Assembly (NCBI GenBank): GCA_965230905.1 | Contig: OZ246396.1 | Location: 990,001-1,022,000, forward strand | Length of the DNA: 32,000 nucleotides | Reading direction: 5' to 3' | From: Candidatus Saccharimonadota bacterium | Lineage (GTDB): Bacteria; Patescibacteriota; Gracilibacteria; UBA1369; 2-02-FULL-48-14 | Shown here: one piece after another, positions 2,516 through 31,273 of the stretch | How the letters are laid out: the number at the start of each line of letters is the position of its first letter | How positions within the stretch are numbered: position 1 is the stretch's first letter | Notes under the pieces: model-generated | What the model saw: only the letters and a program-made list of their open reading frames with translations | What the model was told of the DNA's origin: nothing | The model's database searches: none | Program-made: the position numbers and the translations under genes

Positions 2516-2619
2516 ACGAGGAGTTTTATTTTTCTTTTATCTAGTAATAGTATCATAAAAGCGGGTTTTCAGCAAGTGTGCATGCTTGGCAATTTTCCAG
2601 GTTCGGGCAATATAGAGAC

Positions 2620-5669: not shown

Positions 5670-6983
5670 TTGGAAACCCTCAAAGATTTTTTCCGCAATC
5701 TATTGCCACATGAGCACCCGATTCGGCTTTTTTATCATAAGCTGGTTGCCATGGCGGCGGCCATTCGTTACGGCTTTCCGGCCAATAAAATGATTGTGAT
5801 TGCGGTGACCGGGACGAAAGGGAAGACCAGCACGTCCAACATGATCCATCGCATTTTTACGGAGGCGGGACGCAAAACGGGGCTGCTGACCACCATCAAT
5901 TTTAAGATTGGGGAAGACGAAGAACGCAACACCACCAACCACACCACCGTCAGTCCGTTTCAGTTGCAAAAAAAGATTCGTGAGATGGCGGACGCGCGTT
6001 GTGAGCTTTTGGTTTTGGAAGTGACCAGCCATGCGGTGGTTCAACACCGGCTCTGGGGAATCAATGTGGATACGGCCCTGTTCACCAACTTGAGTCAGGA
6101 CCATTTGGACTACCACAAAACCATGGAGCGTTACCGCAACGCGAAAGGCGGTTTGTTTGAACGCTTGAATGCTTCTGCCCGCAAACCCGGCGTTTCCAAA
6201 ATTTCCGTGGTGAACCAAGATGACCCCGAGCACGAGTACTTCAATCGTATTCCGGCGGACCAGTTGTTTGAATATGGAATTTTGAAAGGGGCCTACGCGG
6301 CGCGCAATTTACAACCCAATGCCGAAGGAACAAAATTTTTACTCAGAATCCCGAATGGAGAGGTTGAAATCGACCTAAAAATTCCCGGACAAATGAACGT
6401 TTATAATGCTTTGGCGGCGGCTACGGTTGCCACGGCGCATCAAATCAATTTGCACGTTATAAAGAAAGGGCTCGAAAGCATGCAGCCTTTGCCGGGGCGT
6501 TTGGAGGTGATCGAAGAGGGGCAGCCCTACACGGTGGTGGTGGACTTTGCGCACACCGAGGAATCGCTGCGCCAGGTGCTCAAAATGTTCCGCGAGCTCA
6601 CCAAGGGCAAACTCATTGTGGCGTTTGGCGCTACCGGCGAACGCGATCAGGGTAAACGTCCCAAAATGGGGGCCGTGGTGCACCAGTTTGCGGATCAGGT
6701 TATTTTGACCAACGACGACCCTTACATGGAGGACCCGCTCAAAATTGCAGAGATGATTCGGGAGGGAATCCCTCGAGTAGAAGGGCAGGGCTTTTGGCAG
6801 GTTTTGGACCGAAAGGAAGCCATTCGATTGGCCCTTAGTATGGCCCAAACCGAGCAGGATACCGTGATCATTGCGGGTAAAGGTGCGGAGGCTTACCAAT
6901 TGCTTGGACGTCAACGCATTCCGCACGACGATCGCCAGGTGGTCCGTGAACTGCTCAGCCGCGCCACGGAAGTGGATTTGTAA
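5670..6983 (+). CDS. murE: Mur ligase, MurE-type (UDP-MurNAc-L-Ala-D-Glu:diamino acid ligase) with short N-terminal domain
   Basis: P-loop [37 protein letters not shown] (DNPR-equivalent position) and [12 protein letters not shown] start at 5670. Confidence 0.8.
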
Positions 6984-7698: not shown

Positions 7699-8742
7699 AT
7701 GACATTTTCAATTTTCCTCACGTCACTTGGACTCACCTCGGCATTCGGGTGGGCGGTTATGCGACTGTTCCCAAAATGGGGGCTCATGGATAGGCCGGAG
7801 CGGTACGGACACAAGCGCTCTCCCATTCCTTATCCGGGCGGCGTGGCGAGTTTTTTGGCCTTCTTGGCGAGCGCTCTATTGTTTCTGCCGGTTGCGGAAG
7901 GCAGCCCGGTGCTGATTGCGGTTTTGGCGGGCGCGAGCCTGCTGGCCTTCACCTGTTTTTTGGATGACCGTTTTGGGCTTTCTCCTTATCTTCGACTCTT
8001 CATTCAAATAATGGTGGCGGTGCTGGTGGTGGCGGGCGGCATTGGAATCAGTTCTATCACCAATCCCTTTGGCGGGGCGCTGGTGCTCGACGGCATCAAT
8101 ATTCCCATCGACCTCGGCAGCTTTGCTTTCACGCTCACCTTGTTTGCCGATCTGCTCACCATTATGTGGGTGGTCACCATGGTGAATGCGTTCAATTGGA
8201 TCGACGGGGTTCCGGGCATGGCCAACGCTAGCGCCGCGGTTTCCAGTTTTATTTTGCTGCTCCTCAGCATGCGTCCTGATTTTCATTATGTGGATCAAAC
8301 GCTGTCCATTACTTTGTCGGCGATTATTTTGGGAATCAGCTTGGGCTTTTTGATCTTTGATTTCCCCAAGCCTCGCATGCTCATGGGCGACACGGGTTCC
8401 ATGCTTCTCGGCTTTTTGCTCGCGGTCACGGCCATTATTTCCGGGGGGAAAATCGCGACCACTATCTTGGTGCTGGGCTTCCCTATTCTGGATTTTATTT
8501 TCACCATTCTCCGCCGACTCTTTAAAGGTCAGTCGCCGTTCACTGGGGATTTGTGGCATTTTCACCACCGTCTTTTAAAGGCCGGGCTCAGCGAACGCCA
8601 AGTGGTGATTTTGTTCGCGGTCACGGGCGCCGTCTTTGGAATTCTTTCGCTGCTGCTGCACACTGAAGGGAAGGTGATTGCCTTTGCGGCTATTGCGGCG
8701 GTCATGATGCTGCTTCTCACTTTGCTTTATTGGAAAAAATAA
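7699..8742 (+). CDS. Glycosyltransferase family 4 polyprenyl-phosphate HexNAc-1-phosphate transferase, WecA/TagO-like rather than MraY
   Basis: About 10 TM segments. NAFNWIDGVPGMA and MGDTGSMLLGFLLA. The cytoplasmic motif GDLWHFHHRLLKAGLSERQVV resembles the D..HlHHrLl..G.s motif of WecA/TagO-type enzymes, not the MraY PIHHHFE motif. Confidence 0.75.
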   Translation: MTFSIFLTSLGLTSAFGWAVMRLFPKWGLMDRPERYGHKRSPIPYPGGVASFLAFLASALLFLPVAEGSPVLIAVLAGASLLAFTCFLDDRFGLSPYLRLFIQIMVAVLVVAGGIGISSITNPFGGALVLDGINIPIDLGSFAFTLTLFADLLTIMWVVTMVNAFNWIDGVPGMANASAAVSSFILLLLSMRPDFHYVDQTLSITLSAIILGISLGFLIFDFPKPRMLMGDTGSMLLGFLLAVTAIISGGKIATTILVLGFPILDFIFTILRRLFKGQSPFTGDLWHFHHRLLKAGLSERQVVILFAVTGAVFGILSLLLHTEGKVIAFAAIAAVMMLLLTLLYWKK

Positions 8743-14761: not shown

Positions 14762-16135
14762 TCAAAGATTAAACACTAAACCGGCATTTAAAACAATGCC
14801 GAGCGGGATGACGAGCAGATTGCCCCATGCCTTGTAGCGCAGGTATTCCACACGGAAACTGAGCAGCACGTGCCACAAGAAAACGCTGAGCAGCAAATGG
14901 CGGAGCGTTTCGGAGCTGAGCAGGTTGAAATCGCCGGGGAGTGGGTTGCCGCCGGGGAAGACTTTGGCGCTCACATAATGGCTGAAAAAGTACGCCACCA
15001 GGTAAAAGGCCAGTAGCCAGGCCAGGAAGTGATTCACTTCTTCGGTGATGAGCGGTTCGGCTTCGGCGTCGGCTTTGGTGAGTTGTTTTCGTGCCAAAAC
15101 CATTTCTTTCAGCTCTTGCTTGAGTCGGTCGCGTTCGTCTAGGAGCGATTGGAGGCTTTGGCGAGCTTCTTCTTTGGTGCTGGCGCTGGCTTGCCACACG
15201 ATTTTTCGGTAGGTCCAGATTTGCCGACTCACGGTCGAGATTTTTTCGTGCATGGCCTTTTCTTCCGGCGTGGGCAGCAAAGTGGAAAGCCAAGCGGCGA
15301 TGCCTTGGAACAATTGGTTGTTGGATTCTTTGAGGCGGCTTTGCATGTCCTCCAGATTTTGGGTCAGGCCCACTTCAGCCGGTTTTTCGTGCAGCGTGGC
15401 CATGAGCTTTTGGGCTTCCAGGCGCAGGTGGTCGCGCTGGCCTTGCATCTGTTCTTTATGGAGGAAGAGCTCTTGGTCCTGCACTTTTTTCAAAAGTTCT
15501 TCGGAGGTGGTTTCAATATAATCCAAGTTGGTGCTGCTTTTGATGCGGAGCAGTTTATCGATGGTGCCTTGAATCAGCTTTTGCGAATCGGGTTTCAGCT
15601 CGCCTTGGTAGGTCACGAGCATGCCTTTTATTTTTTCTAGAATAAAATCCACTTTTTGGAGCAGGGCTTTGCGTTTCTCTTCAAATTCCGCGGTGATTTT
15701 TTTCTCTTCAATCACGCCTTTGTCGGTGACTTTATTTTGCGCATCGTATTCGGCTTTGAGCACCGTGAGGTCTTCCGCTTTCGCTTTGGCTCGTTCTTCT
15801 TCGCTGGCGCCGCTGGCCACCACGTAAGAAACTTCAAATTGGTACTCGTCCATCAGACGTTTGAAGGCTTTGTAGCGGTTGCTGGCGGGAATGGTCCCAA
15901 TCACTTTTTTTCCGGTTTTATCAAAGGCTTCAAATTCAAATTTGGGGAGGTCGGCGGTGGTGCCGGCTTCTTTGGTAACCGTTTGGGGCGGAGTCTCGGC
16001 GGTTTTTAAAATCGACAAAAGCGAAATGCCGAAGGTGTTGAGTTGCTTTCGGGCGTCTTCTTCATTTGCGGCGCCGATGAGTCCACTCAGCTTCTTCCCG
16101 GTACTATTGACCGCTGTGTATTGAAACTGCGCCAT
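14762..16135 (-). CDS. Hypothetical membrane protein: two N-terminal GspF/PilC-N-terminus-like motifs, a long coiled-coil and three C-terminal TM helices
   Basis: aa 1-43 MAQFQYTAVNSTGKKLSGLIGAANEEDARKQLNTFGISLLSI and aa 65-105 KFEFEAFDKTGKKVIGTIPASNRYKAFKRLMDEYQFEVSYV both follow the F-x-Y-x-A-x-x-x-x-G-K...A...L...G pattern found at the N-terminus of T2SS-F/PilC proteins. The remainder does not look like a T2SSF domain. The start overlaps the pyrG 3' end by 32 nt. Confidence 0.5.
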   Translation of the reverse strand: MAQFQYTAVNSTGKKLSGLIGAANEEDARKQLNTFGISLLSILKTAETPPQTVTKEAGTTADLPKFEFEAFDKTGKKVIGTIPASNRYKAFKRLMDEYQFEVSYVVASGASEEERAKAKAEDLTVLKAEYDAQNKVTDKGVIEEKKITAEFEEKRKALLQKVDFILEKIKGMLVTYQGELKPDSQKLIQGTIDKLLRIKSSTNLDYIETTSEELLKKVQDQELFLHKEQMQGQRDHLRLEAQKLMATLHEKPAEVGLTQNLEDMQSRLKESNNQLFQGIAAWLSTLLPTPEEKAMHEKISTVSRQIWTYRKIVWQASASTKEEARQSLQSLLDERDRLKQELKEMVLARKQLTKADAEAEPLITEEVNHFLAWLLAFYLVAYFFSHYVSAKVFPGGNPLPGDFNLLSSETLRHLLLSVFLWHVLLSFRVEYLRYKAWGNLLVIPLGIVLNAGLVFNL

Positions 16136-17803: not shown

Positions 17804-17874
17804 GCGAAAGCTTTTCATCATTTCCTTCGAGTACGGGAACTTAAACCGTTGACGAGTTCACCGTAAATTCTAGG

Positions 17875-17907
17875 AAAGAAAAAGAGAGTGCATGCACTCT
17901 CTTTTTC
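17875..17907 (-). terminator. Rho-independent terminator after the 799-aa SLH protein gene (palindromic, usable on both strands)
   Basis: The perfect palindrome agagagtg-catg-cactctct (17883-17902) is flanked by an A-run (17879-17882) and a T-run (17902-17906). It lies 37 nt downstream of the stop at 17939. Confidence 0.8.
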
Positions 17908-17938
17908 TGCTCCCAGGTGAACGAGTTAAGGGTTTAAG

Positions 17939-20338
17939 TTACTCATCCCATCCTTCACTCGCAACTCCCCAAGCAATAGCAACGCGAGTGGCGATGGCCA
18001 TGGCTTCAGAGCGGGCGATGTTCTTGTAAGGACCAAAGGTTCCGTTGCTGTAACCTTCTACGATCGGTTGATCGGTATCGTCGGCGGTATCCACCAGGGT
18101 AGAGTTGGCGATAGCAAGGGCGTAGGCAAAGTAGTCGTCGTTTTCTACGTCGCTGAAGCTTGCTTCAACGTCGTAAGAGAAGGTACCTTCACCGGCGGCA
18201 CGGATTGCCCACAAGATGGCATCGGCACGAGTGACAGGAGTATTTGGGTTGAAGCTGTAACCAGAATCACGGGTACGAATCCAATCTTCATTTTCAGCAA
18301 GATTGATGTAGGGGTAATGCCAGTCGTTTGGAGAAACGTCCGTGAATCCAACGTTGCCGCTGTATCCATCCTGTTCATCGAGTCCAAAGATTTTGGTGAG
18401 TACTTTTACGTATTCGGCACGAGTGATGTTTCCATCCGGTCCAAATATTAAAGTGCTGTAACCCTTCACCCAACCGGCTTCTTGAGCGCGGCAGATAATA
18501 TCTTCGTGCCATTCACCGTCGTTGTCCGTGAAGGAATCGGTACAGGTGTAGTTTGCAAGGATGATATCTCGGGTGAGGGTAGGGACTTCATCGCTAGGTT
18601 CAATTGGATCCACTGGATCTTCAACGACGACACCAGGATAGTCGTTAGCGTCGAGAGGATCGGTTCCGGCAGCTACTTCTGCTCCATCGGAGTGGGTGTC
18701 GTTGTCGGTATCGGAATCGTTAGTATCCGTGTCGTAGGTATCCACCTCTTCAATGTCGGTGAGGCCATCTCCGTCCGTATCGAGTGCAAGTGCAGCAGCA
18801 GCTTCGGCAGCGGCCAGGGCAGCGGCTTCAGCGGCAGAAAGGGTGGCTTCGTTTACTGTAGGATCGGTTCCAGCTGTGACTTCATCTCCATCGGATACGC
18901 CGTCTTCATCGGTATCGACGAGAGCGGGGTCAGTTCCGTGTTTTTTGATTTCTGCTTTATCGCTGAGGCCGTCTCCGTCAGTATCCGTAACTTCTTCAAC
19001 TACTGCAGCTGCTTGAGTGATTGTAAGTTTAGCGGTGCACTTCTTGGACCCATCTATACTTACGTTTATAGGGTCACCTGCAACTCCTCCGCTGAAGCTT
19101 ACAGTTATATTTTTGTCGCTAGTCAAGTCTATGTTTAAAGGGTTTGCTGTGACAGGTTTGGATGAAGAACTTGTGTATGTGAACACTCCAGCTCCGGGTG
19201 TTTTGAACACCAAGGTTCCTTGCCAATCTTGGGGGGTGCTACTACCATCTGGCTTTTTAGCACCATCGGTCTTTATAGCGAGTAAAGAAGCTTTAATGCC
19301 ATCCATAATGAATGCACTGAGGCTTTCTTCTTCAGCCAATTCTAAGCTTACGGTGATGTCGAAGGCAGCTTCCGTATCGGTGGCAGCCATCTCATGACTG
19401 GATGGGATTAGCGTTAGGCTTGTACAAGCAAGGGAGCTGTCGGCTGTCGTTTCAATTACATAGCTGGCTGCAATATCTGCATGCAGTTTTGCGCTATTAA
19501 GATCTTCTTTTGCAGCTATTTCGAATGCCTGTTCACTCGCTAGTTCAGCCGCCATTTCGTCGTCAATCGCCTTAAGCTCGGTTAGATAGTCAGCGGTGTA
19601 GCTTGCCTCGTAGTCAGCTTTTGCATCCTGCCAAGCGTTGTAAAGGCTTTTTGCTTCAGTGAAAATATCTTCAAAGTCGTAGCCTGTATTGTACATAGCG
19701 GGATACATACCACATTTGCTCTGGTAGTTGGTTCCGTAGTACTCCTCACAAATATACCATTTAAGGCTTGTGTAATCTGTTTCTAGGCTGAGACACTCTA
19801 CCACGTCTGATCCCGTTTTGATATCCTCTTCACATGCCTTCCACGCTTCTTTTGCTTCAAAGGCTCCAATCCAATCACTGTCCTTTGCTTTGCTGATTCT
19901 GCTATTGTAGGCAGCCTCAGCTGAGTCAACGACGGTTTCGGCTGCTAATTTTTGCTCTACTCCGGCATCGTACGCTCGTTCAGCTACTCCAGCCGCGATT
20001 TCAGCGTTTTCTATGTAAGTAGCAATTTCGTCGTAGGCGGTTTGAGCATTGTCTGCTGCGGTTTGTGCTTTGCTTGCCGCGATTTTTAAACCATTCGCAT
20101 CACCTTTCTCAGCAGCGGCCTTTGCCGCTTCTTGCTGTGTTTTTGCCTCAGTCGCATAATCTTCTACTTTTGCTGCAGAGCCCTCTGCATCCTTGCTATA
20201 GGTGGTGCTCCCAGTTTCGGGATTACCCACCCTGCCCTGCAAATAGCCGCTTTGGGCCATCGAGTAGGCGACTCCGCCCAAAAGGACGATGAGGAGCAGT
20301 AAAAGGATAAGAGGTTTTTTGGTAGGTTTAGTTTGCAT
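17939..20338 (-). CDS. Secreted/anchored surface protein: Ala/Glu-rich helical region + Cys-bounded module + TSP3-like DxDxDG repeats + C-terminal SLH repeats
   Basis: N-terminal signal/anchor KKPLILLLLLIVLLGGVAYSMAQS. DTDGDGLSDKAEI..GTDP..DTDEDGVSDGDE and DTDGDGLTDIEE...DTDNDTHSDGAEVAAGTDPLDANDYPG. SLH-like repeats include FTDVSPNDWHYPYINLA...NTPVTRADAILW and FSDVENDDYFAYALAIA...GYSNGTFGPYKNIARSEAMAIATRV. The start overlaps the upstream gene by 11 nt. Confidence 0.8.
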   Translation of the reverse strand: MQTKPTKKPLILLLLLIVLLGGVAYSMAQSGYLQGRVGNPETGSTTYSKDAEGSAAKVEDYATEAKTQQEAAKAAAEKGDANGLKIAASKAQTAADNAQTAYDEIATYIENAEIAAGVAERAYDAGVEQKLAAETVVDSAEAAYNSRISKAKDSDWIGAFEAKEAWKACEEDIKTGSDVVECLSLETDYTSLKWYICEEYYGTNYQSKCGMYPAMYNTGYDFEDIFTEAKSLYNAWQDAKADYEASYTADYLTELKAIDDEMAAELASEQAFEIAAKEDLNSAKLHADIAASYVIETTADSSLACTSLTLIPSSHEMAATDTEAAFDITVSLELAEEESLSAFIMDGIKASLLAIKTDGAKKPDGSSTPQDWQGTLVFKTPGAGVFTYTSSSSKPVTANPLNIDLTSDKNITVSFSGGVAGDPINVSIDGSKKCTAKLTITQAAAVVEEVTDTDGDGLSDKAEIKKHGTDPALVDTDEDGVSDGDEVTAGTDPTVNEATLSAAEAAALAAAEAAAALALDTDGDGLTDIEEVDTYDTDTNDSDTDNDTHSDGAEVAAGTDPLDANDYPGVVVEDPVDPIEPSDEVPTLTRDIILANYTCTDSFTDNDGEWHEDIICRAQEAGWVKGYSTLIFGPDGNITRAEYVKVLTKIFGLDEQDGYSGNVGFTDVSPNDWHYPYINLAENEDWIRTRDSGYSFNPNTPVTRADAILWAIRAAGEGTFSYDVEASFSDVENDDYFAYALAIANSTLVDTADDTDQPIVEGYSNGTFGPYKNIARSEAMAIATRVAIAWGVASEGWDE

Positions 20339-23237
20339 ACCAAGCGAGGTAAAATCGTAAAGCTAACGTCATTGCCTCTGAACGGGCAATGTATTTAGTG
20401 GCACCAGCGGTGCCATCAGAATATCCAGCAAAGACTCGTGTCGTCCCTGTATCAGGGTCGTCTACAATCGTGTTGTAACCAATGATGATCGCGTAAGTGT
20501 AGTAATCGCTCTTGCTAATATCTGAGAAGGCAATATCACTTTCATCCCAGCCGTAGAGCGTTTGTTCTGCGATACGAACCATGTAAACCATGAGGTCTCC
20601 ACGGGTGATAGGTGCGTTTGGATTCGCAACCGTTCCACGTACAATGCCCAGTTCTTCAGCGGCAACGTAGTAATCGTAGAACCAATCGTTGGAAGTTACG
20701 TCACTGTAGCTTTCGCCGTTTCCAATGCCTTCATTTCCAGAAAGGAGGATCAAAACTTTTATAGCTTGAGAACGGGTGAAGTATTCTTCACCGCCAATGG
20801 TGTCGGAATCGAGTCCTGTAAATATGCCCGCACGGTAGAGACGGCAGGTCTTGCCCCAGAACCAGTCGGATTCATCTACGTCATCAAAAGGTTCTGAACA
20901 AACGTAGTCTTTTGAAGCTAGGATGGTGTTCAATTCGTTGTTGGTGGTAAGCACTTCGGTCTCGTCCTCATCTTCTTCAATATCCTCTTCAATATCTTCT
21001 TCATAGTAAGCATCTTCATCTTCATCTTCATCTTCATCGCTTAGGCCAGGGTAGTCGCTGGCATCGAGAGGATCGGTTGCGGCCGTGATTTCGGCTCCGT
21101 CGGAGTAGGTGTCACCATCGGTGTCGGCGAGAGTAGGGTCGGTGCTGTAAGTAATTTCTTCTTCATCGGTGAGTCCATCGAAGTCGGTGTCGGTACCGCT
21201 TAGACCTGGGTAATCATTGCTTAGGCCAGGGTAGTCGCTGGCATCGAGAGGATCGGTTCCTGCTGTGAGTTCTTCTTCGTCGGAGTAGGTGTCACCATCG
21301 CTGTCTTCGTCGGCTGTTTTGTATTCCAACGTCATCGTGTCTGTACAGGTTTCTTCACCTTCAATGTAAGCGGTGATGATGTCTCCTGCTTTTGCATTTT
21401 TGTAGATGAGCTTAAGATTTGTGCTTGCACCGTGAACCATGGCGTAAGCGGATTCGTCGTTTGTGCTATTTTCATATATTACGGTGCCTGGCATTTCTTG
21501 GAAGAGGAAAACGCCATTAGTAGGGTCTCCGTTAGATTTCTTTGCTTCTACTATAAGTTTCTCTTCCCATATGCCGTCCTCAGCGGCTAAATTCACCTGA
21601 CTGTAGGAAAGTATGTTTTTAATGAAGCTGGCTAGCTCGTCACTTGGAGTGCTTTCCACGTTTATTTCTAGATCCACTGCCTTTTCACCATCCGCAAGAA
21701 CGTAGGTGTCGGGGAGTATGTCCACTGAGATACATACTGGGGCAGCGTCTTCTGCAGTCTCATCGGTTTCGGTTGATTCATCGGTCTCATCGGTTGGAGT
21801 TGGCAATGCGTCCTTTTCTAGGGTAAGTGAATCCTCACAGCCTTCATCTTTAATGTAGGCAGTGATGATGTCGCCAGCGTTTCCGTCAATGTAGAGAAAC
21901 GCATCAGTGGTAAGCGTATCACCGGAAATTTCAATTTCAGTTATAACTTTCCTCTGGCCGGCTTTACTATTATAAGTGAAGGTTCCCATGGTTTTATCTT
22001 GTCTATCAACTTCTACTACCAAGGTTCCTTTCCAAGTTGTTCCGGTGTCGGTTTCTGATTTTATTTCACCAACGAAAGGAGCGGGGATTGCTTGATTTAG
22101 ATAAGCATCTGAATCGGAGGTATTGTCGTCAAGCAACGGATCGGAGTTTAAGGTTCCGGCATCCACATTTGAGGATGCGTCCTGGTCGTCTTCTTCAAGA
22201 CTATCCAGATACTCAAGCTGGGATGTGTTTACCTCTGTCTCTGGGGCACTATTCATTTGAATGCTAGATTCACCGATGGTGAAAGCCAGCAAGTTGGCTG
22301 CTTGGAATCTAGGGTCAAATAGGCCAGCGCTGGTTTCTTCTGTAAGTTCTACTCGTACAGAAAACTCAAGGTCATTATCGGCGTCAAAGTCGGTCATGGA
22401 CGTTGTCATGATGTTGACCTCACAGGTAGGTCCGGACGTAGTTGTAGTGCTAGTGTCGGTTTCAGGTTCAACGGCCTCTTCGGGTTCTGTGGTTTCTGAG
22501 CTTGTGTCTCCTTCGACAGTAATTATTGACTGATCACTACAATTTTTCTCCTCTTTAATGTAAGCAAGAATTACGTCGCCCACAGCGCCATCTTTATAAG
22601 TGAAAGTAAACGATGGTGTCTCTTTGGTGATTGGAATTTCCAATCGTTGCCCGCCTAGCGGGTCAACATTACTTGTTAGGTCACCTTGCCCCGTTGTTTC
22701 AACGACTAAAATGCCTGTCCATCCGGTATTGGTTCCTAGCTCTTCTGTGACCGTTTCCTCAGGCTCTTCTTCTACAGACGTGCCTAGCGTGCGGGGGTTA
22801 AGACCATTCCCGGGTTTTACTTTTATATCTGGGGCATCTTCATCAGTAGGCTCTTTTGGATCAATTGGGTCTTTAGGATCGATTGGATCGATTGGCACTA
22901 TTGGCCCGGTAGGTAGAGTAGGCTCGTCTAAGTTACTGGGAACGGTTGGGTCTTCGTCCATCCGATCGTTAACCCCAAAAGCGTTGGCAGTTTGGTTTTC
23001 TGCGTTAAATAAACTAGCAGATGTTTTTTCGCCGAGTGTTACGTCAACTTGGAAGGTAATGTCTTCGCCAGTAGTTGCTAATACAAGAGCGTCAGGGCTG
23101 ATCTTTACTTCGGTACATACCAAATCGGATTTTCCTACGTTCCTAAGATTCCCGCTCAGGAAACTACTTTGAGTGAGGGCATAGGCTGCGCCACCAATTA
23201 TGGTTACGGCGAGGAGTAGGTAGGCGATTTTTCTCAT
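20328..23237 (-). CDS. Giant secreted surface protein: three Cys-bounded modules + TSP3-like repeats + poly-acidic spacer + C-terminal SLH repeats
   Basis: N-terminal signal/anchor MRKIAYLLLAVTIIGGAAYALTQS. Modules at aa 41-243, 272-476 and 502-640. DSDGDTYSDEEELTAGTDPLDASDYPGLS and DTDGDTYSDGAEITAATDPLDASDYPGLS. DEDEDEDEDAYYEEDIEEDIEEDEDE. SLH-like repeats include YSDVTSNDWFYDYYVAAEELGIV...NAPITRGDLMVYM and FSDISKSDYYTYAIIIG...GYSDGTAGATKYIARSEAMTLALR. Confidence 0.8.
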   Translation of the reverse strand: MRKIAYLLLAVTIIGGAAYALTQSSFLSGNLRNVGKSDLVCTEVKISPDALVLATTGEDITFQVDVTLGEKTSASLFNAENQTANAFGVNDRMDEDPTVPSNLDEPTLPTGPIVPIDPIDPKDPIDPKEPTDEDAPDIKVKPGNGLNPRTLGTSVEEEPEETVTEELGTNTGWTGILVVETTGQGDLTSNVDPLGGQRLEIPITKETPSFTFTYKDGAVGDVILAYIKEEKNCSDQSIITVEGDTSSETTEPEEAVEPETDTSTTTTSGPTCEVNIMTTSMTDFDADNDLEFSVRVELTEETSAGLFDPRFQAANLLAFTIGESSIQMNSAPETEVNTSQLEYLDSLEEDDQDASSNVDAGTLNSDPLLDDNTSDSDAYLNQAIPAPFVGEIKSETDTGTTWKGTLVVEVDRQDKTMGTFTYNSKAGQRKVITEIEISGDTLTTDAFLYIDGNAGDIITAYIKDEGCEDSLTLEKDALPTPTDETDESTETDETAEDAAPVCISVDILPDTYVLADGEKAVDLEINVESTPSDELASFIKNILSYSQVNLAAEDGIWEEKLIVEAKKSNGDPTNGVFLFQEMPGTVIYENSTNDESAYAMVHGASTNLKLIYKNAKAGDIITAYIEGEETCTDTMTLEYKTADEDSDGDTYSDEEELTAGTDPLDASDYPGLSNDYPGLSGTDTDFDGLTDEEEITYSTDPTLADTDGDTYSDGAEITAATDPLDASDYPGLSDEDEDEDEDAYYEEDIEEDIEEDEDETEVLTTNNELNTILASKDYVCSEPFDDVDESDWFWGKTCRLYRAGIFTGLDSDTIGGEEYFTRSQAIKVLILLSGNEGIGNGESYSDVTSNDWFYDYYVAAEELGIVRGTVANPNAPITRGDLMVYMVRIAEQTLYGWDESDIAFSDISKSDYYTYAIIIGYNTIVDDPDTGTTRVFAGYSDGTAGATKYIARSEAMTLALRFYLAWYAN
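21039..21300 (-). repeat. Intragenic direct DNA repeat (two ~82-bp copies exactly 180 bp apart) encoding the DGDTYSD...TDPLDASDYPGLS unit
   Basis: In 21039-21120 versus 21219-21300, the first 40 nt (gcttaggccagggtagtcgctggcatcgagaggatcggtt) and the last 23 nt (cgtcggagtaggtgtcaccatcg) are identical and the centre has diverged. A related copy lies in the neighbouring gene near 18640-18720. Confidence 0.85.
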
Positions 23238-23260
23238 TTTTGTTTTTAGTAAATCTTAGT

Positions 23261-23289
23261 ATTTTACACCAAAATCACTCGTTTAACAA
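23261..23289 (-). promoter_or_regulatory. Candidate sigma-70-type promoter for the 969-aa/799-aa surface protein genes
   Basis: The minus strand reads TTGTTA-17 nt-TAAAAT, with the -10 ending 23 nt upstream of the ATG at 23237. It lies in the 72-nt gap after the 222-aa SLH gene. Confidence 0.35.
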
Positions 23290-23309
23290 GGGGCTGGAGA
23301 GTCATGAAC

Positions 23310-23978
23310 TCAATACAGCTCTTCCCAAACCCTCTCGGCAATAACGATGGCTTCTGCGCGGGTCAGGTTATTGTTTGGGCGGAAAGTTCCATTGCCGTAG
23401 CCTTCAACAATTCCTTGGTCAACGGCAGCCGCCACTGCATCCCCAAACCAGTCGTCAGCACTCACGTCCGAGAAGCGGCTTTCAAAACCAAAGACATCGT
23501 ATTCAATGATGCCGGACATTTGAGTGATCATGGTGACTGCTTCTGCGCGAGTAATATAGTCGTTGGGGTGAAAACTGCCATCGGTATAGCCGCTCACAAA
23601 GCCCTTAGATCTCGCGAAAGTTATATAGGAATAAGCCCAGTCTTCTGCAGTCACGTCTGTGAAGCTGGCGCTTTGAACCGGGTAAACGGTGTAGCTCAAA
23701 TTGAGCAGGGAGATTTTTAAAAACTCAGCACGAGTGATGGGATTGTTTGGCAAGAAGTTTTTTTCGGAATAGCCAGAAACAATTCCCTCCTCGTACATAA
23801 AACAAATGTCCTCTTCGGCCCAATGGTCGGCCACGTCAATAAAAGGATGAGTGCAACCCGTGTTGGTGGTTTCAGCTTTTGCTGTACTGAATGAAAGCGG
23901 AAGTATAAGAAGCGTCGCTATCGCGACGGCCTTTTGTAGGCTCACCTTTGGTGAGTGGGCAGCGAGGAATTTCTTCAT
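23310..23978 (-). CDS. Secreted protein consisting of a signal peptide plus three SLH repeats
   Basis: Signal AVAIATLLILPLSFSTAKAE. Repeats: FIDVADHWAEEDICFMYEEGIVSGYSEKNFLPNNPITRAEFLKI; FTDVTAEDWAYSYITFARSKGFVSGYTDGSFHPNDYITRAEAVTMI; FSDVSADDWFGDAVAAAVDQGIVEGYGNGTFRPNNNLTRAEAIVIAERV. Confidence 0.88.
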   Translation of the reverse strand: MKKFLAAHSPKVSLQKAVAIATLLILPLSFSTAKAETTNTGCTHPFIDVADHWAEEDICFMYEEGIVSGYSEKNFLPNNPITRAEFLKISLLNLSYTVYPVQSASFTDVTAEDWAYSYITFARSKGFVSGYTDGSFHPNDYITRAEAVTMITQMSGIIEYDVFGFESRFSDVSADDWFGDAVAAAVDQGIVEGYGNGTFRPNNNLTRAEAIVIAERVWEELY

Positions 23979-23987
23979 GTGAAAAGT

Positions 23988-24953
23988 TTAGTTCAATCCA
24001 CTATTTTGGTAAACCTGATCCATGGTTTTTTGAGCGAGGAGGCGGGCTTTTTTGGCGCCCATTTCCATGATTTCATCGAGATTTTCAGAGCTTTCAAGCT
24101 GGTCGCGGCGGCTACGGGCTTCGGCAAAGAATTCGAGGAGTTTGGCGAGCAGAGCTTGCTTGGCACGGCCGTATCCAAAACCTCCTGCAAGGTAATTGCT
24201 CTTCAACTCCTCCAGTTCTCTCGAATTAGAAAATTGTTCATAGAGGGAGAGGATGATGTCGTCTTCAATCGGCATGGCGTCTTTGAGCTCAATACTGGCG
24301 GTTTTAATTCCCATGATCTGTTTCTTAATCACGTCCTCCGATTCAAAGAGGCTGATGGTGTTGCCGTAACTTTTGCTCATTTTTTGTCCGTCGGTTCCAG
24401 TCACCGTGCCCACATCTTTTTCAATGGTGGGTTCAGGCAATTTAAAAGTCTCTCCATAAAAATGGTTGAATTTTTCGGCAATGTCGCGGGCAATTTCCAC
24501 GTGCTGTTTTTGGTCCTGGCCCACGGGAACTTGATCGGCTTGGTATATCAAAATATCCGCGGCCATGAGCACTGGATAGGTGAAAAGTCCTACGTTCATG
24601 TCGCGACTCCCTTTGGCGACGGCGTCTTTCCAGGCGTGGGCTCGTTCGAGTAAACCTTGTGGAGCAACGGTGGAAAGAATCCACGCGAGTTCAGCGTGCT
24701 GGGGCACGTCACTTTGGTAGAAGAAGGTTACTTTTTCGGGGTCTAGACCCAAGGAAAGGTAGCTGAGTGCTACTTCACGGCGGTATTCTCTCATCTCGTC
24801 GGCGTTTCTAACGGTGGTGAGGGCGTGGTAGTCCGCTACAAAATATAAACACTCGTTATCTTGATTTTGCAGGGCGATGTGTTGGCGAATAGCGCCCAGA
24901 TAGTTTCCAAGGTGTGGCCGGCCCGTGGGTTTGATTCCAGATAAAATGCGCAT
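23988..24953 (-). CDS. trpS: Tryptophan--tRNA ligase
   Basis: MRILSGIKPTGRPHLGNYLGAI (HIGH-type motif) and GQKMSKSYGN (KMSKS). 321 aa. Confidence 0.95.
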   Translation of the reverse strand: MRILSGIKPTGRPHLGNYLGAIRQHIALQNQDNECLYFVADYHALTTVRNADEMREYRREVALSYLSLGLDPEKVTFFYQSDVPQHAELAWILSTVAPQGLLERAHAWKDAVAKGSRDMNVGLFTYPVLMAADILIYQADQVPVGQDQKQHVEIARDIAEKFNHFYGETFKLPEPTIEKDVGTVTGTDGQKMSKSYGNTISLFESEDVIKKQIMGIKTASIELKDAMPIEDDIILSLYEQFSNSRELEELKSNYLAGGFGYGRAKQALLAKLLEFFAEARSRRDQLESSENLDEIMEMGAKKARLLAQKTMDQVYQNSGLN

Positions 24954-25011: not shown

Positions 25012-25407
25012 ATGAACCATTGGCTGCTCAAAAGTGAACCCGATTGCTACAACTGGTCCGAGCTCGTGAAGGACGGCGCGACCTTTTGGGATGGCGTGCA
25101 CAATTACCAAGCCCGTAATAATTTGCGTGCCATGAAAAAGGGCGACTTGGCGTTTTTCTATCACAGCGGTGAGGAGCGCCAGATCATGGGAATCGCGAAA
25201 ATTGTGGGCGAGGCCTATCCTGATAAAACCGATGCTGCATGGTCGTGGGTGGACATTGAACTGGTTGAGGCGCTGCCTCGGCCGGTGACTTTAAAGGAAT
25301 TGAAAGAGCACCCGGCTTTAGCGGGCATGAACTTGTTTCGTCAGTCGCGTTTGTCGGTGGTGGCGATTACGCCAGAAGAGTGGGAGGCGATAACGGCGAT
25401 ATACTAG
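25012..25407 (+). CDS. EVE domain (PUA-like, modified-base-binding) protein, standalone
   Basis: MNHWLLKSEPDCYNWSELVKDGATFWDGVHNYQARNNLRAMKKGDLAFFYHSGEERQIMGIAKIVGEAYPD...RLSVVAITPEEWEAI is a near-textbook EVE (PF01878) pattern. Confidence 0.9.
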   Translation: MNHWLLKSEPDCYNWSELVKDGATFWDGVHNYQARNNLRAMKKGDLAFFYHSGEERQIMGIAKIVGEAYPDKTDAAWSWVDIELVEALPRPVTLKELKEHPALAGMNLFRQSRLSVVAITPEEWEAITAIY

Positions 25408-25510
25408 TTGGTGTACCGCAGGCGGATTTTGGCCGAAAGGTGAATATATACTCACCTAGCGTTTTGTCACTAGAATGTGGCTACTTTAACCTGTTGAAGC
25501 GGTGGATTTT

Positions 25511-25519
25511 TGCTAAAAT
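25511..25519 (+). promoter_or_regulatory. Possible extended -10 promoter (TGcTAAAAT) for the HNH gene
   Basis: tgctaaaat lies 24 nt upstream of the ATG at 25543. TTGAAG sits 14 nt upstream, which is suboptimal spacing. Confidence 0.25.
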
Positions 25520-25542
25520 TAAATTTCCTTAATCTAACAATT

Positions 25543-26346
25543 ATGACAGACGAAGAACTCTATGAAAAAGCCCGCCTTTATGGGCAAAACGTATTGCAAT
25601 GGAGGCAAAGGTTTATGGGCTTACTCCCGGAAGTGGAGAAACGCCGTCTTTATGCAAAGAAGGGTTTCGGCTCCGTGTTTGAATTTGCTTTTAAGTTGGC
25701 AGGGTTGAGTGAAGAACAGGTGCGAAGGGTTTTAAGCCTTGAAAAGAAATTTACAGAGCTACCTGTTTTGAAGGGGCTTTTAGAGACGGGCGAAGTGAGT
25801 GTAAATAAGTTGGCACGCGTGGCCTCCATAGCTACTTCACAGAATGAATTGGAATTGGCGGAGGTAGTAAAAGTTTTGCCACAGAAGGCGCTAGAGACTT
25901 TGGTTAGAGACGAAAATGCTGTACCACTTGTACCACGAGGGCACTTTGTGCGCGCGCACAACTTGGGATTGAGCGATGAGGTGACTGCAAAACTTCTTGA
26001 GCTTCAAGAAAAAGGACTAGATGTAAATGAGCTATTTTTGGAGTTTTTACAGAAGCATGAAGAGGAAATTGCCCAAGAAAAAGCAGCTATTGCCGCAGAA
26101 CTGCCAGGATCACAATCCCGTCATGTACCAGCTCGCACGCAGCGGGTTCTACAAAAAGAAAACGGTTCCAAATGTTCCATCCAAACCTGCAAAAGACCCG
26201 CCCAGCATCTGCACCACACGCAAACCTTTGCGCTAAGCAGACGGCACGACCCACATTACTTGGCCCCCCTTTGCAAAGAACACCACACTATCGCGCACGC
26301 CATCAATGTGAAGGTGCAGGAGAGGCGGACGGATTTTATACGCTGA
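25543..26346 (+). CDS. HNH endonuclease with DUF222/13E12-like helical N-terminal region
   Basis: The C-terminus CSIQTCKRPAQHLHHTQTFALSRRHDPHYLAPLCKEHHTIAH has the C-x4-C...HH...C-x2-HH HNH zinc-finger layout. The N-terminus LPEVEKRRLYAKKGFGSVFEFAFKLAGLSEEQVRRVLSLEKK is typical of DUF222-HNH proteins. ATG 25543 is preferred over the track start at 25510. Confidence 0.8.
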   Translation: MTDEELYEKARLYGQNVLQWRQRFMGLLPEVEKRRLYAKKGFGSVFEFAFKLAGLSEEQVRRVLSLEKKFTELPVLKGLLETGEVSVNKLARVASIATSQNELELAEVVKVLPQKALETLVRDENAVPLVPRGHFVRAHNLGLSDEVTAKLLELQEKGLDVNELFLEFLQKHEEEIAQEKAAIAAELPGSQSRHVPARTQRVLQKENGSKCSIQTCKRPAQHLHHTQTFALSRRHDPHYLAPLCKEHHTIAHAINVKVQERRTDFIR

Positions 26347-28334: not shown

Positions 28335-30569
28335 ATGTTTTTGATGATCTCACGCCGCCACTTACTCGCATCCGCTGTTTTAAATCTGGTTTGGATTTTG
28401 CCTGTCTCTGCGGCGGATCTCTTCACTTCAGGTATTGAAAACGGACTTATACAAGGAAATGCTGTTCAAACGCAGCACTTCCAGTTTGAGTTTTCTGATG
28501 TGGTGGGTGAACAGGCCGATTCCGATGGAGATGGAATCCCTAATCTTATAGAAGTGACGGCCGAAGCAGCTGAAGAAAGCTGGGACATTGTGATTGACGA
28601 TCTGGGTTACGAAGAGCCCACGGGAGATGGAAGCCGTTTGATCGTTATTATGGACGACAACGATGAGTACTTGAGCAGCAGTGCTTTGGGAATCACCAGT
28701 TTGCTCAGCAATGGAAATCCTTATGTAGCCATTGACCCTTGGATGTCGGATGCGTATTTGCAAGTGACCATGGGCCATGAATTTTTTCATGCGGTTCAAT
28801 TTGGCTACGACCCGGGCTTTGCCTATTCCTACCAGGGAATTAATTTTGCGGAAGCCACCGCCACTTGGGTGGAAGACCTCATTTTTGATTCCGTGGACGA
28901 CTACGCTCTTTATATACCTGAATTTTTAAGTTACATCGATTACTCGATTTTTGCCTCCATTGTCCCTACGGGGACTTTGTATGAATATGGAATGAACATT
29001 TGGCCTCGTTTCTTGAGTGAGTACTACGACAACAACGTGATTAAGAATGTGTGGGAAACGTATTTTGATTCGTCCATTGATTTTGATAGCGATCTGAAAC
29101 TTTATGAAGCGGTGAAGGATGTGGTGGGTGAGGAGGGTGGAGATTTGGAAGCGGTTTTCCAACAGTTCACGCTTTGGAATTTGAATTTGGATAGCTATGA
29201 AGAGGGAGATATTTATCCGGAGGTATTTATTTTAGAGGGTGAAGAAAGTCAGGACTATGTGCTGAGTGATGAAAGTTATGCGCCAGCTCTGTTTGGAAGC
29301 AACTATCTTTACTTTGAAAACTCCAGTGGATCGGGTGAATTTTCCTTCCATTTGGTTAAGCCCGAGGGCGTGAGCTTTGCCGTTTCTTTGGTGCCATACG
29401 ATGGGGTGAATTACGATACCGATGCGGCTGAAACGGTCATTATTGGCAAAGACGACGAAATGTCGGAGGCGCTTAGCTTAAGCCATGTTGGAGCACAGGA
29501 TGGGGTGATGGCGGTTATTTCTGCTTTGAATATAGACTACGATGATGGGAACAATTGGGAGGTGTTTGACGAGGGGTATTTGTATTATTATTTGGCAGAT
29601 TACGGCTTGAATGAAAGTGAGTTTGAAGAACTCATGAGTGGAACGGAAGAAGAACTCACCGAGGAAATTGAAGAGACTGATGGAGAAAAAGAAGGTGAAA
29701 CAACGGAGTACGCTTCGGATGGACGGGGTCAAAGTAGTTTGACCTTATCGGTTGTAAGTTTTGATCAAAATTCGGCCACGTTCTCTTGGAATCGTTTGGA
29801 TGACAATGATATTGCGGGTTACGAGCTCCATTACGGTACTTCTTCCGGTTCTCATGCAAATAAGCTGGAAATTAAAACGGCTTACACCACTTTCAGCACC
29901 GTGGCTGATTTGGAAGCTGGTGAGACCTATTATTTCACTTTGAGGGCCGTAGATAAAAATGATGACAAGGTGGGTGAAGAAAGTTCTGAAGTTTCCCTCA
30001 CTCCCGAAGAATGGCTGTTTGAGGATATATCTTTTGCCAATCCACATTACGCCGCGATTGAGAACTTAGTGGAAATGGGAATATTTGAAGGTTATGCCGA
30101 TAATACTTTCCGACCAGAAACTGAAATCAACCGAGCTGAACTCTTGAAGATTTTGGTGGAAGGTCGGGACATTGAGGTGGATGCTTCCTTGAATAAGAAC
30201 TGTTTCCCTGATGTTGGGGAAGAATGGTATTCCCAGTACGTTTGCTACGCCAAATACCGAGGATGGATCAAGGGCTACAGTGACGGTACTTTTAGGCCCA
30301 GCGACACGGTGAATAAAGTGGAGGCGCTCAAGATGCTCTTCAATGTCTATGAAATGGAGCTGAGTGAAGACGCTACGGTTGCGAATCTTAAGTACACCGA
30401 TCTCGATGAAAATGCTTGGTACGCCATCTACGTATGGAAAGCCTCTAGCTTGGGAATTTTGGAAGAAACCGTGGGTGGAACCTTTAACGGTGCTGACGGT
30501 AGAAACCGGGGTGATATGGCCGAAGAACTCTACCGCTACTTAGTGGTGGAGGAAGGGCTTAAGGAATAA
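28335..30569 (+). CDS. Secreted putative zinc metalloprotease (HEXXH) with FN3-like domain and three C-terminal SLH repeats
   Basis: Signal LLASAVLNLVWILPVSAAD. VTMGHEFFHAVQFGY has HEFFH at 28776-28790. The FN3-like region is LTLSVVSFDQNSATFSWNRLDDNDIAGYELHYGTS...GETYYFTLRAVDKNDDKVGEES. SLH repeats include FEDISFANPHYAAIENLVEMGIFEGYADNTFRPETEINRAELLKIL and FPDVGEEWYSQYVCYAKYRGWIKGYSDGTFRPSDTVNKVEALKML. Confidence 0.75.
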   Translation: MFLMISRRHLLASAVLNLVWILPVSAADLFTSGIENGLIQGNAVQTQHFQFEFSDVVGEQADSDGDGIPNLIEVTAEAAEESWDIVIDDLGYEEPTGDGSRLIVIMDDNDEYLSSSALGITSLLSNGNPYVAIDPWMSDAYLQVTMGHEFFHAVQFGYDPGFAYSYQGINFAEATATWVEDLIFDSVDDYALYIPEFLSYIDYSIFASIVPTGTLYEYGMNIWPRFLSEYYDNNVIKNVWETYFDSSIDFDSDLKLYEAVKDVVGEEGGDLEAVFQQFTLWNLNLDSYEEGDIYPEVFILEGEESQDYVLSDESYAPALFGSNYLYFENSSGSGEFSFHLVKPEGVSFAVSLVPYDGVNYDTDAAETVIIGKDDEMSEALSLSHVGAQDGVMAVISALNIDYDDGNNWEVFDEGYLYYYLADYGLNESEFEELMSGTEEELTEEIEETDGEKEGETTEYASDGRGQSSLTLSVVSFDQNSATFSWNRLDDNDIAGYELHYGTSSGSHANKLEIKTAYTTFSTVADLEAGETYYFTLRAVDKNDDKVGEESSEVSLTPEEWLFEDISFANPHYAAIENLVEMGIFEGYADNTFRPETEINRAELLKILVEGRDIEVDASLNKNCFPDVGEEWYSQYVCYAKYRGWIKGYSDGTFRPSDTVNKVEALKMLFNVYEMELSEDATVANLKYTDLDENAWYAIYVWKASSLGILEETVGGTFNGADGRNRGDMAEELYRYLVVEEGLKE

Positions 30570-31196: not shown

Positions 31197-31273
31197 TGGT
31201 GCACCCAGAGGGATTCGAACCCCCAACCCTCGGTTCCGAAGACCGATGCTCTATCCAGTTGAGCTATGGGTGC
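31197..31273 (-). tRNA. tRNA-Arg (anticodon UCG), CCA encoded
   Basis: The minus strand reads GCACCCA-TA-GCTC-AACTGGATA-GAGC-A-TCGGT-CTTCGGA-ACCGA-GGGTT-GGGGG-TTCGAAT-CCCTC-TGGGTGC-A-CCA. It forms a full cloverleaf with a 7-bp acceptor stem, a TTCGAAT T-loop and a C-T-[TCG]-G-A anticodon loop. Confidence 0.93.

Follow-up and report, generated by a model that had tools for sequence, protein, structure and literature searches.

What are three consecutive S-layer homology (SLH) proteins doing between trpS and pyrG in the 1.3-Mb genome of a bacterium of the Candidate Phyla Radiation (CPR)? The question is raised by a 32,000-nucleotide (nt) stretch of contig OZ246396.1 (positions 990,001 to 1,022,000 of the forward strand); this whole stretch is called the window here, and all coordinates are positions within it. 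On its minus strand, which also carries every feature of A, B and C described below, trpS (23988-24953; a tryptophanyl-tRNA synthetase of 321 amino acids (aa), identified by its open reading frame (ORF) and a Pfam tRNA-synt_1b match) lies upstream of the genes A (A222; 23310-23978, 222 aa), B (B969; 20328-23237, 969 aa) and C (C799; 17939-20338, 799 aa). A consists of a predicted signal peptide (residues ~1-35, ending in STAKA before ETT) and three canonical SLH repeats, and nothing more. B begins with a hydrophobic motif for export or anchoring, followed by three beta-sandwich modules, TSP3 repeats and, at its C-terminus, an SLH triplet. Its paralogue C has the same export motif, a helical N-terminal domain, one module, TSP3 repeats and an SLH triplet. 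We propose, with a probability of roughly 0.6, that B and C form a variable cassette of SLH-anchored surface proteins beside the conserved, anchor-only A, and that they make up an outer coat or contact surface of the cell.

The gene run is as a preliminary description of this DNA had given it. ORFs were located at the positions claimed for the minus-strand order trpS-A-B-C, and re-reading the junctions in the sequence gave the same distances: trpS and A are 9 nt apart, A and B are 72 nt apart, and B and C overlap by 11 nt. A fourth SLH protein had been placed at 28335-30569, and D (D744; plus strand, 744 aa), a secreted protein resembling HExxH metalloproteases, indeed ends in an SLH triplet and also has an fn3 domain; it is syntenic in all relatives compared. 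Alignment of B residues 493-966 with C residues 296-790 (32% identity, E 5e-68) identified the two as paralogues. Calculated isoelectric points (pI) of B, C and D are at the calculator floor (4.05, i.e., ≤4.05), with Asp plus Glu contents of 18-22%, compared to a pI of 4.56 for A and 5.2-10.1 for the non-SLH neighbors.

The CPR-type background that had been suspected is borne out by the public record. NCBI names the proteins "Patescibacteria group bacterium" (entries MEK9159148, MEK9159150 and MEK9159143, proteins of a metagenome-assembled genome on a 1,307,106-bp contig), and the relatives, found via the B-type SLH end and via A, are labeled Ca. Peribacteria, Ca. Peregrinibacteria or Ca. Gracilibacteria. 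The source lineage is a CPR bacterium of the Peribacteria/Peregrinibacteria ("Gracilibacteria") type. An ENA contig from Hainich groundwater (0.2-µm fraction) matches the window with 100% identity; single-nucleotide differences between Hainich samples numbered three, all at contig ends, and were uninformative. We considered genetic code 25 on the basis of the Gracilibacteria labels of relatives and rejected it: code 11 leaves the long ORFs intact, and A ends at a TGA where its homologues end. A, C, D and PyrG of the window are deposited at NCBI, with A, C and D already labeled "S-layer homology domain-containing protein".

The C-terminal repeats of all four proteins were recognized by the Pfam SLH profile (PF00395; gathering score 20.8 bits). 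A scored 164 bits (6.1e-49, three stretches), B 43.6 bits (two stretches), C 62.3 bits (4.1e-17, three stretches) and D 88.8 bits (2.2e-25, three stretches), all above the gathering score. The third repeat of B is degenerate, with Tyr in place of Trp and an insertion, and still lies within the triplet match of the hidden Markov model (HMM). The triplet of B occupies residues 773-969 (20331-20921), with TRSQ, TRGD and ARSE at the TRAE position; that of C occupies residues 594-799 (17942-18559), with TRAE, TRAD and ARSE. A is the most canonical of the four, with W, GxxxG and TRAE in each repeat. Its family comprises ~70 clusters of 203-231 aa and 44-84% identity, in which every named member comes from the Peribacteria/Peregrinibacteria lineage. 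In D, the NCBIfam model MXAN_6640_HExxH (NF045524) matched at 7.4e-39 with 134.2 bits against a cut-off of 140, and an HEFFH motif is present beside the fn3 domain.

In the SpaA protein, Trp13 of the SLH repeat stacks on the sugar ligand, Gly29 (in GIIxG) flips the backbone and Arg43 (in TRAE) binds the pyruvate (PMC6081394). We read SLH-Trp13 and SLH-Gly29, together with SLH-Arg43, off each of the three repeats, giving nine ligand-site positions per protein. All nine are kept in A, eight in B (SLH3 Trp to Tyr), seven in C (SLH2 Gly29 lost, SLH3 Trp to Tyr) and six in D (SLH1 Trp lost, SLH2 Arg to Lys, SLH3 Gly29 to Glu); by sequence, complete grooves number three in A, two each in B and C, and one in D. 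The SLH part of the C model matched the co-crystals of SpaA-SLH and Sap-SLH with 4,6-pyruvyl-N-acetylmannosamine (Foldseek TM 0.62-0.74 on the target), and A matched the Sap SLH domain (6bt4, 3pyw) at 1e-14. The anchors look functional on these residues, and from the kept sites together with the structural match to SpaA and Sap we infer that the SLH trimers of B and C bind a pyruvylated wall polymer. A, with three intact grooves and no passenger, could conceivably cross-link or cap wall-polymer ends, in the spirit of the adaptor or competitor role that had been suggested for it. A lineage-specific pair of cysteines (C-x16-17-C) brackets the first helix of SLH1 in A222 (42/59), B969 (780/798) and C799 (599/616), and a similar pair lies in SLH2 of D; the SLH1 pairs suggest disulfide-stapled SLH domains.

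An anchoring role of a different kind, as OmpM-type outer-membrane tethers like those of diderm Terrabacteria, was weighed for these SLH proteins; in its favor, A matched the NCBIfam "iron uptake porin" model (por_somb) at 3e-9. That match covers the SLH segment only, at 36 bits against a cut-off of 100 and over just 44 model positions. No beta-barrel porin domain was found in any of the four proteins, and the CPR are regarded as monoderm (10.1101/2021.05.31.446380). Domain content effectively refutes this candidate.

What B and C carry in front of their anchors had been described as matching no recognized family. This stood as far as curated families go: Pfam and NCBIfam searches of the passengers gave no match besides TSP3, and sequence searches of the PDB added nothing. 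The passengers are far from featureless, however, since they contain a repeated, lineage-restricted module and, in C, a helical bundle. The repeat unit is an unannotated beta-sandwich module of ~140 aa, present in three copies in B and one in C. Module 1 of B (residues 36-246, 22500-23132; module HMM 3.6e-21) has a ~75-aa Pro/Asp/Glu-rich insert in its variable loop, module 2 (residues 267-478, 21804-22439; 7.4e-56) has a long acidic loop insert, and module 3 (residues 497-643, 21309-21749; 1.4e-52) is the short-loop form that we modeled. The single module of C (residues 300-446, 19001-19441; 9.4e-54) appeared as beta strands in the full-length model.

Two cysteines, one at the start and one at the end of the module, are invariant across 34 aligned modules; for a Trp and a Gly-Asp pair, this holds in the alignment of the seven closest modules but not across the 34. 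The conserved motifs read W-x-G-x-L and G-x-x-G-D-x-I-x-A-Y-I-x-x-E-x-x-C. A word-indexed search with full-length B returned two hits, with acidic low-complexity candidates dominating, and one with the 34-module alignment gave no matches. The module profile was used instead: in a HMMER search of 1.84 billion cluster representatives, just 63 proteins reached E ≤ 1e-3 and 23 of these E ≤ 1e-10, and among PDB sequences nothing was significant. The AlphaFold2 model of B module 3, built from the 34-sequence alignment, reached a predicted local distance difference test (pLDDT) of 84 and a predicted TM score (pTM) of 0.78. The predicted fold is a sandwich of nine strands plus a short helix, after which a low-confidence loop occupies the position of the ~75-aa Pro/Asp/Glu-rich inserts of modules 1 and 2; in one homologue, TSP3 repeats sit at this insert position. 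Against the PDB, Foldseek returned weak, generic Ig-like matches only (best E 1.9e-3, TM ≤0.48), among them reeler, complement MG, cohesin-like, integrin and pilus-chaperone domains.

Among 64 module-bearing sequences, 45 end in an SLH triplet and 19 lack SLH. Most of the latter (15 of 19) are long (0.85-1.9 thousand aa, some incomplete; they include sequences among P0021, P0029, P0030, P0042 and P0046), with 1.8-2.3% Cys, and the long SLH-less proteins share the conserved C-terminus (E/D/N)YV(D/N)..(T/S)...(V/I/L)N. Three short fragments (164-419 aa) and P0054 make up the remainder. P0021 and an A homologue lie on one 83-kb contig. The long SLH-less proteins probably correspond to what has been reported from Peribacteria as "large cysteine-rich extracellular proteins".

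This distribution bears on whether B is an anchoring scaffold, like SdbA and OlpB, whose modules would be cohesin-like receptors docking secreted proteins such as the giant Cys-rich, SLH-less ones. The domain order is the same: nine-strand sandwiches of ~140 aa at the N-terminus and an SLH triplet at the C-terminus. The 19 SLH-less module proteins, mostly 1.2-1.9 thousand aa long with ~2% Cys, have no other evident wall anchor. Weak fold matches to the cohesin-like modules 2jh2 and 2vo8 (TM 0.43-0.48, E ~6e-3) also point this way, but those to reeler, complement MG, integrin and pilin-chaperone sandwiches are equally weak. With no Pfam Cohesin match and no dockerin-like partner identified, we regard a scaffold of this kind as improbable.

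Between module and anchor, both proteins have acidic spacers that match TSP3_bac (PF18884; cut-off 25 bits) at 39.7 bits in B (4.2e-10) and 67 bits in C (1.3e-18). The TSP3 region of B (21048-21305) has DxDxDxxxDxxE motifs at residues 645, 683 and 705, and the TSP3 and linker region of C (18572-19000) has four such motifs. Inside the B region, a 92-bp direct repeat with 90% identity (21034-21125 and 21214-21305; DGDTYSD...TDPLDASDYPGLS) points to a recent internal duplication of a putative calcium-binding spacer. In some family members, the TSP3 segment is replaced or CARDB-like repeats are added.

The N-terminal domain of C (residues 28-299, 19442-20257) is modeled by AlphaFold2 as a bundle of long helices, the longest spanning 69 residues (~10 nm), with a low-confidence, Cys- and Tyr-rich tip that holds four cysteines (Cys169, 182, 197 and 209). 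An iterative HMM search with this ~270-aa domain collected ~20 relatives, marking it as family-specific, and neither Foldseek nor a PDB sequence search gave a significant match. A ClyA-type toxin head was tried and rejected: AhlC, MakA, ClyA and Hbl matched in Foldseek at E ≥0.29 and probability ≤0.57, the tip is acidic rather than hydrophobic, and there is no hydrophobic tongue.

Export signals had been assigned to all three proteins of the run. A and D have ordinary signal peptides of the A-x-A type, whereas B and C have a hydrophobic N-terminal segment within an unusually conserved motif, MKKxxYxLxAxLVxGGxAFAL(T/S)Q(T/S)xLLKG (23148-23237 in B, 20258-20338 in C). This motif is kept across 28 sequences (26 family members and the two window proteins) while the adjacent domains diverge, and among the loci compared it is restricted to B- and C-type proteins. 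Read from sequence conservation, it may be a cleavage or sorting signal; a retained membrane anchor is less likely.

If the helix were retained, B and C would be membrane-to-wall tethers or spacers that set envelope geometry and do not face outward. Such retention is conceivable because the putative -1 residue varies while the downstream LLKG is conserved; the A-x-A-like -1 residue is not reliably small, and the segment is more conserved than is usual for a signal peptide amid a diverging remainder. Yet L-K-G also fits the -3/-1 rule of signal peptidase I, so the motif may itself be the cleavage site. Moreover, the least conserved part of the proteins adjoins the helix and the SLH end is the most conserved, a pattern that fits an exposed N-terminus better. 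We consider the tether unlikely.

We then return to the proposal of a variable, outward-facing cassette, for which the comparison with relatives provides direct observations. Relatives were found with the conserved B-type SLH end, the module alignment being too divergent to serve as a locus query, and with A. A slot consisting of trpS, A, one to four or more variable SLH proteins and pyrG recurs in at least six related genomes or contigs: L006, L007/L010/L011, L008, L012 (complete genome CP064962.1), L013 and a 583-kb contig from JGI. The surrounding order is SecDF, further genes, a D-like SLH protease, PriA, in some cases an EVE protein, TrpS, A, the variable SLH proteins, PyrG, a T2SSF_N protein, Lgt and, further on, GreA, RpoD and DnaG. 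The content of the slot differs markedly. L012 and L013 have one protein; the window and L006 have B plus C; L007/L011 have B, an N-domain-only paralogue of 307 aa, and C; and the 583-kb contig has at least four SLH proteins, including a LamG-TSP3-SLH protein. In L008, the most distant relative, a single 908-aa protein directly follows trpS and there is no A. Wherever A is present it closely adjoins trpS: the gap is 9 nt in the window and 9-11 nt in two relatives, and in three others the genes overlap by 4-29 nt. L006 likewise keeps the 11-nt overlap of B and C, and its B has two modules compared to three in the window.

Identities between window and L006 proteins fall within the slot. The flanking genes share 74-94% identity (among them PyrG 94%, TrpS 84%, T2SSF-like 82%, PriA 79%), and A and D are 70% and 68% identical to their counterparts. 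Within C, identity is 67% for the SLH domain, 55% for TSP3, 47% for the module and 32% for the N-terminal domain; for B and its orthologue the values are 67% for SLH and ~31% for the passenger. Conservation of B and C thus declines from the SLH anchor outward.

The variable genes have their own transcription signals. A TTGTTA-17-TAAAAT box had been noted in the A/B gap, and it is present at 23289-23261 on the minus strand (-35 TTGTTA, 17-nt spacer, -10 TAAAAT); an AGATT box comes next, and an A-rich leader then runs to the ATG at 23237. A promoter scan alone was no better than chance, with seven sites found against 8.5 expected; the promoter is nevertheless credible because its boxes and leader are conserved across divergent genomes. 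In each of the five divergent genomes aligned, the -10 box (GTAnAAT), the AGATT box and the A-rich stretch leading to the ATG are kept; four of the five also share the -35 box (CTTG(T/A)(T/A)A). L013 differs, and the aligned stretch there lies within the A coding region. By blastn, the adjacent coding DNA was not alignable, in contrast to the promoter and leader. There is good comparative evidence that this candidate is a real, dedicated promoter upstream of the first variable gene. At the other end, the strong palindromic terminator described 3' of C corresponds to a predicted intrinsic terminator at 17871-17915 (minus strand; fold -26.2 kcal/mol, z = -6.9 against shuffles).

These features are consistent with the following model. 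A would be a small, conserved, secreted protein consisting only of an SLH trimer, whose gene appears to be translationally coupled to trpS; B and C would be translationally coupled paralogues in a variable cassette with its own conserved promoter and a strong terminator. B and C would be exported by Sec, probably with cleavage of the N-terminal segment, and their C-terminal SLH trimers would attach them non-covalently to the peptidoglycan's pyruvylated secondary cell-wall polymer. The acidic TSP3 repeats, judging from their motifs, would bind calcium and stiffen the spacer. The N-terminal parts would then project outward, in B as three disulfide-stapled sandwich modules with hypervariable loops and in C as one module capped by the ~10-nm helical bundle with its Cys/Tyr-rich tip. 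The outer protein coat and contact surface of the cell would consist of B and C together, and rapid diversification is what would be expected of proteins that meet hosts, phages or grazers. Three features argue for a principal surface component and against an occasional accessory: the conservation gradient, the conservation of the promoter and the fact that each relative has at least one such gene.

Several observations weigh against this proposal. Neither csaB (PF04230) nor tagA was found in ~40 kb of the 1.3-Mb genome, i.e., the window and ~8 kb beyond its 32000 end. The ligand sites of the variable proteins are incomplete, given the loss of Gly29 from SLH2 of C and the Tyr in place of Trp13 in SLH3 of B and C. 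The varying -1 residue of B- and C-type proteins (A, V, T or L), next to a conserved LLKG, leaves their processing less clear-cut than that of an ordinary secreted protein. Fast divergence could stem partly from low-complexity linkers rather than from selection. Finally, a broad, phylum-wide survey with 15 CPR genomes concluded that the SLH/CsaB system has been lost in the CPR (10.1101/2021.05.31.446380).

In light of that survey, that this lineage has a suitable wall polymer is assumed from the annotation of a single related genome: in the supplement to the genome paper on Ca. Peribacter riflensis, two genes carry the annotation "polysaccharide pyruvyl transferase CsaB", and several "S-layer" proteins are listed as well. 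S-layer proteins and large, variable exported proteins are further reported from Peribacteria (PMC4736985), and Absconditicoccaceae are reported to have 8-10 SLH genes, with SLH proteins thought to form an S-layer in host contact (PMC13059738). Because of the CsaB annotations in Ca. Peribacter riflensis and the SLH genes of Absconditicoccaceae, lineages of the Gracilibacteria group appear to be exceptions to the reported loss. The window itself encodes a WecA/TagO-like glycosyltransferase family 4 (GT4) phosphotransferase (7699-8742, plus strand; 1.4e-35 against WecA/TagO, TIGR02380, and 3.5e-19 against mraY, both below cut-offs) and a Wzy_C/O-antigen-ligase-like membrane protein (3292-4518, plus strand), with murE near the latter (5670-6983). 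The GT4 and Wzy_C proteins could belong to a pathway for a wall polymer that matters for SLH anchoring.

A stronger version of the coat proposal, with which it overlaps, is that B, perhaps with C, is an S-layer lattice protein proper. The modules would be crystallization domains, calcium bound by TSP3 would drive assembly, the cassette would be swapped between strains, and the lattice would be the paracrystalline layer seen on ultra-small groundwater bacteria. The string of sandwich domains joined to SLH resembles Sap, EA1, SbsB and SbsC, whose SLH domains A matches; both parts of an anchoring plus surface-forming architecture are present, as they are in some non-lattice proteins too; and B and C are very acidic (pI ≤4.05). 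The dedicated promoter with its short conserved leader, the strong terminator and the occurrence of at least one such gene at the slot of every related genome would also suit a lattice protein, and S-layer protein genes have been stated for Peribacter (PMC4736985). SLH domains, however, anchor many non-S-layer proteins, with ~12.5 per SLH-bearing Firmicute genome (bioRxiv 10.1101/2025.04.02.646754). No structure is predicted for the Pro/Asp/Glu-rich loops and linkers that make up large parts of B, the helical stalk of C is atypical for lattice proteins, and the number of genes in the slot varies from one to four or more. To our knowledge, paired cysteines are likewise unusual in classical S-layer proteins, which also counts against a lattice. 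We hold a true S-layer to be possible, and only tentatively so.

Going beyond the coat proposal, the module may be a lineage-specific assembly or docking domain, with A, B and C as a modular system for display on an episymbiotic CPR bacterium's wall. In that case, B and C would build the coat through module-module contacts and dock the giant Cys-rich SLH-less proteins, swaps of the trpS-pyrG cassette would retune host or particle specificity, and GGxAFALTQTxLLKG would be a dedicated sorting or processing signal. This combination is a speculative extension that we regard as doubtful.

Other genes of the window were examined alongside the slot. The T2SSF_N protein downstream of pyrG (14762-16135, minus strand, 457 aa) matches GspF/T2SSF_N only over its first ~45 residues and continues as a coiled coil with a hydrophobic C-terminus; its gene shares 32 nt with pyrG, and synteny holds in all relatives. 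On the other side of the slot, the EVE-domain gene (25012-25407) is present in only some relatives. Between it and priA lies a gene for a 278-aa protein with an HNH-like Cys/His motif (25510-26346, plus strand; CKRP...HLHH...CKEHH). No homologue of it was detected in L006, L008 or L010 and no equivalent gene lies in L013, and because it is missing from the relatives compared, it is probably a mobile insertion. At the corresponding position, L012 has an unrelated 155-aa ORF of secreted type. The only RNA gene detected in the window is a tRNA-Arg (31197-31273, minus strand; anticodon TCG), and a 78-nt stretch there is the best-conserved DNA relative to L006 (96% identity). An ORF of at least 845 aa (2-2536, minus strand) runs off the window start and has no Pfam match; plus-strand ORFs at 68-1183 are antisense artefacts inside it.

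CPR bacteria are abundant, uncultured and probably attached to other cells, and their surface molecules are almost unknown. For the Peribacteria/Peregrinibacteria, this locus gives testable candidates for the outer coat, namely an anchor-only SLH protein and a variable pair built from an undescribed domain. SLH anchoring, whose loss in the CPR was reported from a small number of genomes, appears to have been kept and elaborated in this sub-lineage, which bears on the evolution of the Terrabacterial envelope. The module and SLH domains are small enough for expression, for tests of binding to pyruvylated sugars and for structure solution; the conserved promoter could serve to track expression, and the fast-evolving tips are natural markers for studies at strain level and of host specificity. 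The SLH annotation is already public, and SLH and S-layer genes have been mentioned for this CPR group. The module family, the helical N-terminal domain, the anchor-only family coupled to trpS, the slot of variable content with its promoter, and the gradient in conservation appear in none of the papers retrieved by keyword searches on SLH, S-layers and CsaB in the CPR, which were not aimed at these features.

How, then, does the locus compare with known systems? The "S-layer proteins" of Ca. Peribacter riflensis and the SLH genes of Absconditicoccaceae represent the same phenomenon, several SLH proteins in a CPR genome, and those reports stop at the SLH annotation. D744 is comparable to the BSL proteins of Bacillus anthracis in joining an SLH triplet to an enzyme domain, here a putative HExxH metalloprotease with fn3; it differs in the C-terminal position of its triplet, and its score as an MXAN_6640-like protease is just below the cut-off. 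With the S-layer proteins of Bacillales (B. anthracis Sap and EA1, Geobacillus SbsB and SbsC, Paenibacillus alvei SpaA), B and C share an SLH trimer with conserved Trp13, Gly29 and Arg43, a passenger built as a string of beta-sandwiches, an acidic composition and links to calcium. The triplet is N-terminal there and C-terminal here, however, and the module is unrelated, lineage-restricted and marked by a conserved Cys pair and long disordered loop inserts; a TSP3 spacer, the helical bundle of C and the occurrence in a CPR bacterium set the present proteins further apart.

The anchoring scaffoldins SdbA, OlpB and Orf2p of Clostridium thermocellum have what we take to be the same order as B, i.e., N-terminal sandwiches of ~140 aa, a linker and a C-terminal SLH triplet. 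They differ from B in that no cohesin homology is detectable in the module (no Pfam match, Foldseek TM ≤0.48) and no cellulosome context was seen here. The S-layer cassette of Clostridioides difficile differs in its anchor, which is CWB2 there and SLH here; the numbers of genes (one to four or more) and of modules vary here, and no evidence of recombinational switching was obtained. The likeness lies in the locus itself: in both systems, as we understand the clostridial one, a fixed position with conserved flanks holds surface proteins whose content differs sharply and whose wall-binding part is conserved.

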